From: Macrostomum lignano
Lineage: Eukaryota
Assembly: GCA_002269645.1 (NCBI GenBank)
Contig: NIVC01003589.1
Coordinates: 1 to 64,000, forward strand
Reading direction: 5' to 3'
Length of the DNA: 64,000 nt
The position numbers and the translations under genes were made by a program. Below are positions 10,910-57,845 of the stretch, one piece after another. Numbering within the stretch: the stretch's first letter is position 1; each line of letters starts with the position of its first letter. The notes under the pieces were generated by a model that was not told where the DNA came from, searched no databases, and saw only the letters and a program-made list of their open reading frames with translations.

Positions 10910-13615
10910 AGGTGGACAACTTTACAGCTTGTGGATCGAATTGGCAATTTGATGGAATTGAACAACTCGACTTGATGCTGTGTATCTACCGAAAAAGCAC
11001 AATTCGTGGAGCAGCAGCAGCCCACGAAACCCGCGACCAGACGGCAGAGCCGTCTGGTCACAGGCGTCGCACCCCCACCCCCGTGGCGGCGGCGGCGGCG
11101 GCGGCGGCGGCGGCGGCGGGCGTGCGTTCAAAGTGCCAATATCGCTCAGACTGAAACGAAATGCTGTCATCTATTTGAAACCACACAACTCCACTCAAAC
11201 CAACTGTTTTCGGTATGCTGTACTGGCAAGCCTTTTCCACGAAAAGGTTACTGCGAAGCCGACCAGCAAGAAAAGCTACGCTCCATGGTTGAAGACGATT
11301 CGTTTCGGCGGCGGCGGCGGCGGCCCAGCGCGTCATGCAACTCCCTCATACAGGAAATTCTGTCGTCGAAATCCGAATATTGGTCTACGAGTATTTGTCT
11401 GGGATCACGAGAGCAAGACTGCTGTTCAATATTTTTCGTTGCGTGCCACGGATTAAAAGTATTTGGCTAATTGCTTGTTCATTCCTCCGTATGTTGAGTT
11501 CAAGTCGGGACATTATATGCCAATAAAAAATCTCAAGTCGTTGTTGAGCAGCAACAATAAGCGCCGAAGATACAGCCCCGAATGTTTGGTTGGGTTCAGC
11601 CACACACTCTCTTGGAATTTTATTTTGAACCAGCACAACTACGGAGGAGGAACCTTGGACAAACCGACCACGCAATGGGCAAGTTCAGCGAGTTGTTGTC
11701 CTCGTCGTCATCCTGAAATTCGTGTGGCTCGATCTGCGTCAACAGAGCTGCTACCAAAACCTTCGGAAGCTATTCTTGAGTTCACTGCACATGAAGCTCG
11801 ACTGCCTCCGTTATACGTGGTCCATGCCGACATTGAGAGCATTCTTGCTCCACCTGAAACTCTACAGTTGGGACCGCCGCGAATAGGCGCCAGTTCAAAT
11901 ATGCGCATTCTAGACATTCATGTGCCTGTGTGCGTTGCCTACAGACTTGTGGTGTGTCCGGAGCTAAACAAATTGTCGGCCGCGCGTTTGCAGGCCAAAG
12001 TTGGCCAACAGCCATGCAAAGTCATCTACAATATGCCAGACGGGGGTCCGAATTGCATTCGCCAGTTTTTGCAAGCTCTTCGTCAACTTGCCTTTGAAAT
12101 TTGGAGTGACACTACAAATTCTGCGACGTTTACTCCTCTGCTGTGCAAGTATGCCTGCAGTAGGCAGCAGCAGCAGTCGGCGGAGCATTGTCAGCTTTGT
12201 GGTCGAGCGTTTGGAGAAGACGACCGCCAGGTTTTGGATCATTGTCATTTGACTGGTATGCCTCGAGGAATCGTTTGTGTCTCCTGCAATCGGAAACTGT
12301 CTCTCAAACGTTATCGTCTACTTGTCTACACTCACTGTCTGAGCAACTATGATGGCAAATTCTTTGTGAGAGAATTGTACGAGACATTTTCTGGAAATGA
12401 TGTGCAGCTACACGTGCTTCCAGAGACAAAAGAAAAATTCAAGACATTTTCGGTAAAGTTTAAGATACCCCTTGGTGCGGGTGCGTCTCGCCAGCAGACG
12501 CGACGCGACTTTGTATGGTTCGAGGTGTGTTTTAAAGACACTTTTGCCTATCTGTCCACCAGTCTGGCTTCGCTAGCTCAATGTCTGTCGCCCGATCAGT
12601 TGGTTCACACTCGCGAGTTACTCAAATTATATCCTCGCCTGCAGCCTGCTAAACTTCAACAGAAGGGAGTTTTTCCTTACAACTTTTTGTCTAGCGAGGA
12701 GAAACTTGATTCCGTCAGGCAACTGCCGCCAAAAGAGGCTTTTTTCGATCGGTTGAGTATGCAACACTGCTCTGATCAAGACTATGCACGAGCGCAACAG
12801 AGTTGGCTAGAATTTGAATGTACCAATCTACGCCAATACACCACGGCATACCTGCAGTTGGATGTGCTGCTTTTGTGTGACGTGTTTGAGAACTTTCGAA
12901 AGACTGCAATGCAAGAGTATGGACTCGATCCGGCCAATTTTTTAGGCTTGCCCATGTTTAGCATGGCTGCGTGCTTGCTGGGTATGGAAATGCCGATTCA
13001 TTTGTTCACGGACCCTAAAATGTATTCGGAAGTAGAAACCTCGATTCGCGGAGGATTCAGTTTTGGAACCCGACACATTACGACCGCAAACAATCGACTT
13101 GTGCAAGATCAGCGTCGCCGACTGGATCAGGAGGAGCCGCTGCTTTCGACGTTGCGTGATAATGCACCCGATGGTACCTATTTGGTTTACTTGGATGCCA
13201 ATTCGTTGTATGCTTCTTGCATGACCGAACCTATGCCGTGTAAAGATTTTCGCTGGTCGACTCGTCAAGAGATTGCTAGTATACCTTGTGACGAAACTGA
13301 TCGACTTGAGACCCTGCATGTTAAAAGTCGAATGTTGGATTGGTTGGTCGGTTTTTGCAACGATGGGCGTGGAGCCGTTTTCAATGTCGACTTTTATTAT
13401 CCTCGATTTTTGCACGACTCTACCGCTGATCTTCCACTCGCGATTGGTCATGAGATTCTGACGGAGAATCGGCTTACGCAGCAAATGAAGAACGACTGGG
13501 TTTGCTTGCAACGTCAACTAAATCCAGAGCGATATGCCAATGCTGCCTGCTACGAGGACGTGAAACCGTTCAAGAGCCCAACAAAAAAGCTTGTCGGTTC
13601 GGTGGATCACAAGCT
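10909..13615 (+). pseudogene. polB: Protein-primed family B DNA polymerase, family B element, N-terminal part
   Basis: GSNW; HADIES (ExoI); CQLC...DHCHLTG...CN insert; NYDG (ExoII); KGVFPY; DVLLLCDVFENFR; IRGG; YLDANSLYASCM. Frameshift in the (GGC)n region and TAA at 11454. Confidence 0.92.
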
Positions 13616-14428
13616 AGTAGAATGCATGAGGGGGCTTCTGCGACAAAATTTTTCACGTCCTTCATAATCCTTTTAAATCCATCCATATTATCCCCAACAG
13701 AATCAGAAAAAAGCGGGGTCGCACTTGCTCCGAAAACTTCGAACATAATCCCATTAAATCCATCCATATTATCCCCTGACAGAATCAGAGCAGGTGTCCA
13801 CTGATACCTGTTATGCTCACTGTGGACACTTGTTATGCTCACTGACACTGACATAATCCACTGACATCCACCCATAGCATCTTCGAAACAATCAGAAAAT
13901 AATCTGCATTCTTCTCCCCACATTCAATTCGCAATGCGAAGCGGCGAAACCAGATCCCTAAGACTTAAAATCCCCAAATCTAGGGTCCTTACCCTTTGAA
14001 AAAAAATAAATTTTCTCTAAAAATGTTTCCAGTTGTCTCTCCAAGTTCTTATTACAAAGCGCACGAGCCTAATTACAAGAGTAAGTACCAGTGCAAGAAG
14101 GAATGCAGTGAGTACATGAGAAAATATTGGCTCGGCGTTGATATCAATGTCCCTAATATTAATCTAGCTCTCCAAAGACACTGGTTTCTTAAATACGGAG
14201 TAACATACGTAAAAGATTACGACAGCTACTATAACTTTGCAGAAATCATTAGGCAATTGTGATTTCTTACATTCTCTCAATGATCAACGTCAATACAAAC
14301 TCTTCACCGTTGAAATCAACACCCACCCCATCTTCAGTCTCAAATTGTATCACAATCTCGTGAATCTCCTTATTACTCAATACAACTCTTTTCACCGGAT
14401 TTGGTTTCTCTACCAGCATCTGTCCTCC
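13616..14428 (+). repeat. Left TIR of the outer family A copy (2 units of a ~82-bp VNTR, small ORF, penton 3' end)
   Basis: Reverse complement of 56067-56794 apart from one VNTR unit. Confidence 0.92.
14023..14262 (+). CDS. 79-aa TIR-encoded protein, unknown function
   Basis: Intact ORF in all four complete TIR copies (14023, 22877, 38121, 56472). Confidence 0.65.
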   Translation: MFPVVSPSSYYKAHEPNYKSKYQCKKECSEYMRKYWLGVDINVPNINLALQRHWFLKYGVTYVKDYDSYYNFAEIIRQL

Positions 14429-56066: not shown

Positions 56067-56794
56067 GGAGGACAGATGTTGGTAGAGAAACCAAATCCGG
56101 TGAAAAGAGTTGTATTGAGTAATAAGGAGATTCACGAGATTGTGATACAATTTGAGACTGAAGATGGGGTGGGTGTTGATTTCAACGGTGAAGAGTTTGT
56201 ATTGACGTTGATCATTGAGAGAATGTAAGAAATCACAATTGCCTAATGATTTCTGCAAAGTTATAGTAGCTGTCGTAATCTTTTACGTATGTTACTCCGT
56301 ATTTAAGAAACCAGTGTCTTTGGAGAGCTAGATTAATATTAGGGACATTGATATCAACGCCGGGCCAATATTTTCTCATGTACTCACTGCATTCCTTCTT
56401 GCACTGGTACTTACTCTTGTAATTAGGCTCGTGCGCTTTGTAATAAGAACCTGGAGAGACAACTGGAAACATTTTTAGAGAAAATTTATTTTTTTCAAAG
56501 GGTAAGGACCCTAGGTTTGGGGATTTTAAGTTTTAGGGATCTGGTTTCGCCGCTTCGCATTGCGAATTGAATGTGGGGAGAAGAATGCAGATTATTTTCT
56601 GATTGTTTCGAAGATGCTATGGGTGGATGTCAGTGGATTATGTCAGTGTCAGTGAGCATAACAAGTGTCCACAGTGAGCATAACAGGTATCAGTGGACAC
56701 CTGCTCTGATTCTGTCAGGGATAATATGGATGGATTTAAAAGGATTATAGAGGACGTGAAAAACTGTCCCAGAAGCTCCCTCATGCATTCTACT
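56067..56794 (-). repeat. Right TIR of the outer copy (1 VNTR unit)
   Basis: Ends catgcattctact followed by TSD caagct. Confidence 0.92.
56233..56472 (-). CDS. 79-aa TIR-encoded protein
   Basis: Copy of 14023-14262. Confidence 0.65.
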   Translation of the reverse strand: MFPVVSPGSYYKAHEPNYKSKYQCKKECSEYMRKYWPGVDINVPNINLALQRHWFLKYGVTYVKDYDSYYNFAEIIRQL

Positions 56795-57845
56795 CAAGCT
56801 CGGCTATGTGCTTCATCATCGAGCTTTGCGCCTCTACTTGGAGTTGGGTTTGCGAGTCACGCGAGTTCGTCGGGCCATTGGATTCACAGAGAAGCCTATT
56901 CTACGCAAGTATATTAATCATAATATTGCTCGTCGTGTGGCAGCTAAAACCGAGTTCGAGAAGGACTTTTTCAAGCTGCTAAACAATGCCCTGTTTGGAA
57001 AATTCCTTCAGCGCTTTCGAGATCGCTTGACTTATTGAATGTGCTCTTCGCCAGAAAAATTGGAGACCTATATTTCGCGAGAGGAATTCTTGGATGTGAA
57101 AATTTACACTGAATTTTTGGCCAGTGTCAGTTTGTCTCCTCGGCGTGGTGCTCAACAAACCGATAATCATTGGTGCATCAATTCTGGATATTGCCAAAAC
57201 GATTGTATACAGTTTTTATTACAATCATGTACAGGTGAGCAGTAGGGGAATTTTTTGGATTTTGGGTTTGCTCTATTCTACTGCTGCTGCTGCTTTGATT
57301 TTAGGTGCACCGGTCACTTGCTTGTGCTCGCGTACTTGGCGGTGATACAGACAGTCTGATGATGGCTCTTATAATGCGGAATCCTGCTTAGACGCCTTAC
57401 GAGACACTGTTCAAAGATTTGGCTGCACAATGCCTATTGGACACTAGTAACTACCCTCCAACACACAGTCTGTACTCGCTTGCACACAAAAGGAAAATTG
57501 CTCGCATGGAAAGACGAGTTTTGCGGACGTCTTCCGTTGGAGTTGGCTTTTCTTCGGCCCAAGAACTACTCTTTTCTGCATTGCACTGCTGAGGGGACAG
57601 TTGGTCAAGTGTCTCGGTCCAAGGGAGTATGCAAGGCTGTTGCTCGGACTCTGAAGCATACTGCTTACTTGCAAGTAATAGCCGATCGACGTTTGCACTA
57701 TGTTACATTGCAAACAATTACGTCGCGCAAGCAGCTCGTGTTCTCGCTGAGTCAGCGCAAGCAAGCGTTGGGTTACTTTGACACTAAACGTGCCTGGACC
57801 AGCGATCTGGCGTCTCTACCGTTTGGTCACTGGCGACTTGACTGA
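56795..57845 (+). pseudogene. polB: pPolB of the family B element, C-terminal part
   Basis: YVLHHRAL, FKLLNNALFGK, NKPIIIGASILD, GGDTDS, KDEFCG, LRPKNYS, DTKR, LPFGHW. Confidence 0.92.
57235..57304 (+). other. Putative 70-nt spliceosomal intron in pPolB
   Basis: CAG|GTGAG ... ttttag|G; removal joins YNHVQ to VHRSLACARVLGGDTDSL in frame. Confidence 0.7.

Follow-up and report, generated by a model that had tools for sequence, protein, structure and literature searches.

How does a Polinton come to be 43 kb long, and in which order did its parts arrive? This question is raised by a stretch of the Macrostomum lignano genome—positions 1 to 64,000 of contig C3589 (89,356 bp; assembly of 764 Mb), here called the window—in which a Polinton of family A (copy A1), itself filled with further mobile elements, interrupts the polymerase gene (pPolB) of a Polinton of family B. 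The original prediction, made from the letters of the window, had proposed such a nest. The structure is confirmed as real and correctly read, is larger than had been reported, and is of a kind known from repeat-rich DNA, probably built by ordinary serial insertion. The account that we favor, and hold to be probable, is that of one family-A Polinton in the family-B polymerase gene that grew to 43 kb in place by serial insertions.

Junctions of the outer Polinton

The outer Polinton and its boundaries comprise the following features.

13610..13615, forward strand: left copy of the 6-bp target-site duplication (TSD)
13616..22393, reverse strand: first arm of A1, with terminal inverted repeat (TIR, 13616-14428), penton-like open reading frame (ORF, 14270-15133), double jelly-roll (DJR) capsid gene (15154-16440), ATPase gene (18221-18781, forward strand) and C-terminal part of pPolB (21303-22322)
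38820..40294, reverse strand: middle part of the A1 pPolB
51983..56794, reverse strand: second arm of A1, with N-terminal part of pPolB, pX region, a variable region with an ORF (54840-55505) and TIR (56067-56794)
56795..56800, forward strand: right copy of the 6-bp TSD

As had been claimed, the hexamer CAAGCT stands on both sides (13610-13615 and 56795-56800) of a 43,179-bp family-A element (13616-56794, A1 with its contents); the chance of a 6-mer match at both ends is about 1/4096. The element runs from AGT to ACT, with AGTAGAATGCATG at its left start and CATGCATTCTACT at its right end. Its two TIRs—684 bp at 98.7% plus a terminal unit, with AG...CT ends—are mutually nearest among 46 family-A TIRs, being 1.0% apart with the next nearest at 6.3%. 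TSDs of 6 bp are made by family A elsewhere as well, namely by 4/4 full-span copies and by 10 end pairs among 68 sampled ends (12 rows, four of them from one duplicated locus). For this sample, 73 ends were read, of which 68 are distinct and lie outside C3589, the two ends of a double-terminus locus (L015) having been dropped; like the other samples used here, it consists of best or first-listed matches and is not random.

In 58 of these 68 ends, an A or T stands three positions outward from the 6-bp duplication, which describes a weak target preference.

The interrupted gene and its empty counterpart

The interrupted Polinton B is represented in the window by these parts.

10909..13615, forward strand: middle segment of the Polinton B pPolB (PF03175 and PF02945; 97% to the copy on contig C2529; longest open stretch 11457-13613)
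56801..63582, forward strand: Polinton B, continued, with the C-terminal part of pPolB (bearing stops and frameshift-size gaps), ATPase gene and start of the integrase gene
58511..58921, forward strand: PLA2-like ORF
60396..61133, forward strand: penton-like ORF
about 61749-62254: fragment of a long interspersed nuclear element (LINE) in Polinton B, with a 12-bp TSD

It had been suggested to search for an empty site elsewhere in the genome, and an uninterrupted family-B polymerase gene was indeed found. A search of the own genome gave 17 matches to the left flank, and the best of the other places is a copy on C2529 (L002), with 98% identity to the left flank, 95% to the right flank and a single 6-mer. 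Three more distant B relatives (76%) are likewise uninterrupted at the site. The C2529 copy (C2529:17164-35936) is a family-B Polinton of 18.8 kb that has a 6-bp TSD of its own, TIRs, pPolB, integrase and ATPase, and it is on this copy that the Polinton membership of B was tested, the right end of the window copy lying outside C3589. The two copies are 3.1% diverged over 7,423 sites. The left end of the window's B lies on contig C1090—whose end overlaps window positions 1-2055 at 99.8%—and its flank there is unlike that of C2529; therefore, the empty copy is a paralog, which rules it out as the other allele.

Removal of the insert had been said to restore the frame of the host polymerase. This holds insofar as a 1,272-codon frame of C2529 crosses the insertion site, stopping before the C-terminal part of the gene, and the left flank in the window has the same phase. 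The B pPolB of the window is broken elsewhere too, by an insertion of a family-C Polinton at 10909, by stops and by frameshift-size gaps. In the same vein, a polymerase gene is truly split by the insertion, but it is that of the host Polinton B and not that of the cell.

Sequencing runs carry the junctions as well: the stretch is present in 9/16 listed runs, always as short-read contigs. With contigs set on the empty copy, run X1 yields both junctions as well as the empty site, and runs X5 and X6 yield the right junction and the empty site; run X9 has no cover at the site and is hence uninformative. The empty-site contigs of X5 and X6 might come from an allele of the window's B copy that lacks the insert, but simplification of contigs is probably the better fit: the X5 contig follows the window until about 120 bases short of the site and from there, by difference count, the paralog. 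Taken together, the TSD, the paired TIRs, the natural empty copy and the read contigs support the view that a family-A Polinton entered a family-B pPolB by integrase-type insertion.

The family-B copy on C2529 also has deoxynucleoside-kinase, dUTPase and TBP-like ORFs (L043, C2529:20515-28261).

Composition of the 43-kb insert

Of the 43 kb, outer A accounts for 15.1 kb, inner A (copy A2) for 16.4 kb and LINEs for 11.7 kb, and each of these has a target duplication at its borders.

22394..38819, forward strand, opposite to A1: A2, 16.4 kb, splitting the pPolB of A1; rve integrase (26955-27620), pX (28059-28514), pPolB from 28596 in pieces
22379..22393 and 38820..38834, forward strand: left and right copies of a 15-bp duplication around A2
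34012..34600, forward strand: LINE fragment (RNase H end), 5'-truncated, in A2; 14-bp TSD (33998-34011, 34601-34614)
40295..51982, reverse strand: LINE B-1 (AP endonuclease, reverse transcriptase, RNase H) with both of its ends, interrupted by LINE B-2
40137..40294 and 51992..52149, forward strand: left and right copies of a 158-bp target duplication around B-1
41618..47338, forward strand: LINE B-2, young; 9-bp TSD (41609-41617, 47339-47347)

In comparison with C875, a natural copy of family A, the outer element corresponds to 13616-22393, 38820-40294 and 51983-56794 in reverse orientation, that is 15.1 kb. A1 lacks about 1.1 kb of its integrase gene (most of the gene), and its pPolB is split by both A2 and LINE B-1. 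PF03175 matches a piece of A1 (39019-39666, E 1.4e-8) and C875, while the rve integrase domain is matched in A2 and C875; an N-terminal OTU domain on the polymerase found no match in a search confined to Pfam. Matches of family A to Pox_A32 (E 3.5e-4), DJR-like (E 9e-4) and Peptidase_C5 (E 0.004, C875) are weak and below the Pfam cut-offs, yet occur in the expected gene set and probably mark a packaging ATPase, a DJR major capsid protein and a protease. The minor capsid ORF that we presumptively call penton-like, from position and recall, has no Pfam match and shows 24% identity to the ORF at the same position in family C. PLA2-like and pX matches of family A lie in separate ORFs that flank the integrase. 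Families A and B fit the definition of Polintons/Mavericks (PMC8097293, PMC12220804).

The proposed nesting of B > outer A > LINE B-1 > LINE B-2 and of outer A > inner A > LINE stands, while no separate insertion of a short interspersed nuclear element (SINE), as likewise proposed, is shown. Similarly, the Polinton-type TSD and AG termini hold for A1 (6 bp, AGT...ACT) but not for the inner A: A2 has a 15-bp duplication in place of a 6-bp one, and its left TIR lacks the first 26 bases, while its right end is a near-normal terminus. A2 further lacks about 2 kb of capsid-side sequence relative to C875, and a dispersed 300-bp repeat at 25853-26157 is common to A2 and a further copy, A5.

Both B-1 and B-2 are non-LTR retrotransposons with RNase H, in which AP endonuclease, reverse transcriptase, RNase H, a 3' tandem tail and a TSD are all present. 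The 158-bp duplicates around B-1 show six differences, all private or nearly so (three per side), and share two rare variants; therefore, the 158 bp are one local sequence that was duplicated—a true long target duplication—and the shared rare variants rule out a join of two different A copies. Relatives of B-1 bear duplications of 13-16 bp (clear in 3/7 scored copies). L1 target-site duplications of more than 100 bp are a minority outcome, accounting in HeLa cells for as much as 10% of events (PMC5223499), and HERV-K shows long ones too (PMC5488345); the duplication here is of the same length class but surrounds an RNase H-bearing LINE with short-TSD relatives.

The nearest sibling of B-2 (99.6%) lies on C2506 (L179/L180, C2506:21032-28841) in a family-A pPolB, a few hundred bases from the homologous site. 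It is surrounded by a 130-bp duplication with four private differences, more than so young a LINE predicts. C2506 also carries another A end at the start of the same pPolB, and a second LINE in A.

Might the interior be in part a chimera of the assembly, or the result of recombination between different copies of A? Family A offers ample material for this, with 691 TIR candidates (154 exact matches of one end variant) and hundreds of copies 90-99% alike, the inner junctions are odd, and the read evidence is of short reads. On the contrary, read contigs contain both outer junctions, the pairing of the outer TIRs is unique, every inner element has its own target duplication, and the 158-bp duplicates share rare variants. 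We consider a chimera most improbable.

Under serial insertion in place, a Polinton integrase would have made a 6-bp staggered cut in the B pPolB. LINE B-1 might be a product of target-primed reverse transcription in which the second nick lay far from the first, giving the 158-bp duplication, and the inner A might have joined by one normal end, with host repair reshaping the other. One-ended integration is a behavior of retroviral-type integrases; a literature search on it found nothing. LINE B-2 would have come last. The locus likely gathers insertions as dispensable, already-dead repeat DNA that tolerates them, and not through integrase recognition of Polinton sequence.

Relative chronology

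The relative chronology that had been read from the nesting is supported by an independent measure: the loads of private substitutions fall in nesting order. They amount to 93/3,987 (2.3%; three-way comparison, an upper bound) for B, 46/3,049 (1.5%; 17/1,455 and 29/1,594) for A1, 25/2,818 (0.9%) for A2 and 7-14/3,901 (0.2-0.4%) for LINE B-2. The difference between A1 and A2 is significant (Fisher p=0.03) and recurs in two more matched regions (10 vs 5 and 16 vs 11). For orientation, a copy beyond the window, A4, has 4/2,555, and 29 other family-A copies have a median of 0.21%. The 3/158 private differences of each B-1 duplicate suggest that B-1 may have arrived soon after A1, be it before or after A2.

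Divergence between TIRs was tried as a clock and rejected, as the order comes out reversed and reflects mosaic blocks. The A2 TIR differences are, by alignment, blocks of variants common to other copies, and identity to other copies varies along the element from less than 1% to more than 20% difference; therefore, family A is mosaic, in line with the general mosaicism described for these viruses (10.64898/2026.10.13.758929).

Probable growth in place and its alternatives

Several observations weigh against growth in place by serial insertion. The TIRs of A2 differ at 31/392 sites (7.9%), those of A1, in their inner part, at 5/569 (0.9%). LINE B-1 is 4.5-5.8% from its nearest relatives (a young burst), which is above the load of A1. 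The left junction was recovered in only 1/4 runs (X1), which may be the assembly's own sample, and the read support as a whole is confined to short-read contigs over the outer junctions. Finally, five A insertions occur in about 90 kb, where about 0.04 would be expected (a rough estimate, made after the fact), and pPolB genes are the target of 4/6 Polinton insertions at the locus (binomial p=0.03, likewise after the fact), so that tolerance alone may not fully explain the crowding and the pPolB share. Regarding B-1, its changes are mostly synonymous (ratio of nonsynonymous to synonymous change, pN/pS, 0.15; pN 2.3%); therefore, most of its divergence is earlier lineage change.

The TIR figures bear most directly on a composite jump, in which the inner A and B-1 were acquired elsewhere and the whole unit moved into B with enzymes of other copies, making the inside older than the insertion. 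Outer TIRs 99.1% alike (569 sites) next to inner TIRs of 92% would fit this. An A1 without most of its integrase and with a split pPolB would fit too, and mobile insect Polintons with transposable-element cargo have been reported (10.1101/2025.02.07.637071). Against this, two internal junctions that were searched for were each found once among 40 scored candidates, with no second copy, and the private changes of A1 outnumber those of A2. A recent copying of the entire unit is further opposed by seven differing sites in the outermost 83 TIR bases of A1—a stretch with 0-1 in three other copies—and the TIR differences of A2 trace to mosaicism. A composite jump is thus very unlikely in our judgment.

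Enlargement is not confined to this locus: a second enlarged A on C1340 spans 37.5 kb with a matching 6-bp TSD. Among five long A spans checked outside the window, this one and a span of 20.5 kb have a matching TSD and three do not.

Crowding and target choice

The pile-up is larger than first stated, with family C at 10909 and further A copies from 63583.

1..10908, reverse strand: right part of a family-C Polinton in the pPolB gene of B (Pfam Pox_A32 and DJR-like; unmatched in the C2529 B copy), with tail-fibre-like, penton-like, ATPase and DJR capsid ORFs and a LINE at about 4000-7990
63583..64000, forward strand: left end of family-A copy A3, inside the integrase gene of B

The B copy starts on C1090, which also holds the other end of family C; the 6-mer there is the same as at 10909-10914, so family C has its own 6-bp duplication. 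Past 64 kb, C3589 continues with A4 at 74868 within A3, and with A5 at 82267 in the pPolB of A4.

Two observations on these neighbors stand by themselves. The end of family C is a 100-bp imperfect hairpin (window 10809-10908) with AGTAGT start and ACTACT end, common to many copies. The left arm of the window's B contains an 11.3-kb element (C1090:36570-47863, L113/L114) with 4.7-kb inverted repeats that are 99.96% alike.

Such crowding might also arise from an integration hot spot, with the integrase drawn to resident Polintons—by local hopping, homology or bound proteins—and biased toward polymerase genes. One B copy was struck by C, A1, A3 and the 11-kb large-TIR element, A2 lies in A1, A4 in A3 and A5 in A4, and the pPolB share given above points the same way. 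Elsewhere, A lies in A at C2506 and C273 and in C at C272, with C2506, C273 and C1391 forming other crowded loci; two same-strand A ends occur within 60 kb on 6/68 contigs, and integrases of B show a chromodomain match. Nevertheless, only 2/68 sampled A ends outside C3589 lie clearly in Polinton DNA: one in family C (L241) and one in a family-A pPolB (L243), about 3.6% of insertions (95% interval 0.4-12%), as judged with a library of families A, B and C that may miss other families. Three further ends have weak or nearby Polinton matches (L039, L210, L244). The other B copies examined (C2529, C889, C272) carry no A end, and pPolB makes up about one-quarter of the element. A hot spot is hence an unlikely, if not negligible, explanation, and self-targeting by family A across the genome is ruled out by the 2/68 ends within this three-family library and non-random sample. 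The LINEs show no preference for Polintons either: 0/19 B-1 5' flanks and 0/18 distinct B-2 3' flanks lie in Polinton DNA.

Tolerance of insertions in dead repeat DNA remains the simplest cause of the crowding. A bolder version—that the locus is a Polinton trap, where incoming families are drawn to residents and tend to land in the polymerase gene, so that in the germ line each disables the replication gene of the others—we regard as quite unlikely; if true, it would mean that in an animal, at some loci, the integrase of a Polinton directs one virus against another. Targeting of resident Polintons is not demonstrated by the present sample. Should a full insertion map show it, the locus would matter more, as target choice by Polinton integrases is little studied.

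Relation to known systems

Families A and B share with animal Polintons/Mavericks (PMC8097293) and adintoviruses (PMC8502044) the PF03175-type pPolB, rve integrase, packaging ATPase, DJR capsid and adenain-like protease, as well as AG/AGT-ended TIRs, the 6-bp TSD and the decay of most copies. The ends of family A, AGTAGA, are one base off the vertebrate (AGT)2 motif given in these sources. Unlike the elements described in the same papers, family A has separate PLA2-like and pX ORFs, and the copies here are broken and nested. Of the features that mark Alpha adintoviruses (PMC8502044), to which the OTU domain mentioned above also belongs, the PF03175-type PolB was found and the fused PLA2X ORF was not; therefore, no adintovirus class is assigned.

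Nesting of viral elements is known from the protist Halocafeteria seosinensis, with five Polinton-like viruses (PLVs) and nine virophages nested and one three-level case (10.64898/2026.07.28.741278). There too, viral elements with TIRs and TSDs lie within one another, near LINEs and in hot spots; in contrast, the present nest combines three Polinton families and LINEs in an animal-type genome and in a dated order. PLVs and virophages that contain retrotransposons have been described (PMC12220804, PMC8547959), including retroelements in Cafeteria virophages (PMC8547959), and, as in these nests and in insect Polinton cargo (10.1101/2025.02.07.637071), retroelements interrupt core viral genes here. 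Unlike the insect Polintons of the latter source, there is no sign here of a loaded element moving later. A literature search found no report of Polinton-in-Polinton nesting in animals; supplements may hold such cases.

The locus thus provides a dated record of three Polinton and two LINE families that were active in overlapping periods in one genome. The natural empty copy fixes the footprint of the integrase, and TIR identity proves to be a poor clock for mosaic Polintons.

Further variation among family-A copies

TIR length among family-A copies ranges from about 0.7 to 6.2 kb. The right TIR of A1 runs into a copy of the end of the penton-like gene (55981-56225), preceded by a 56-bp piece of the start of this gene. 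The region from the TIR to PLA2/integrase (window 23120-26360 and 54544-55980) differs between A lineages, each version being common to other copies; in it lie unassigned ORFs (23651-24286, 54840-55505) as well as a hairpin-like repeat of 93 bp in tandem. The locus dropped from the end sample (L015, C3908) has two family-A ends in the same direction, 219 bases apart. Another element (L049/L050, C2140:107247-122715) combines family-A ends and a 6-bp TSD with inverted repeats of 6.2 kb that are 99.9% alike; it shows no pPolB or integrase match, and its repeats hold reverse-transcriptase, tyrosine-recombinase and SAP-domain ORFs.

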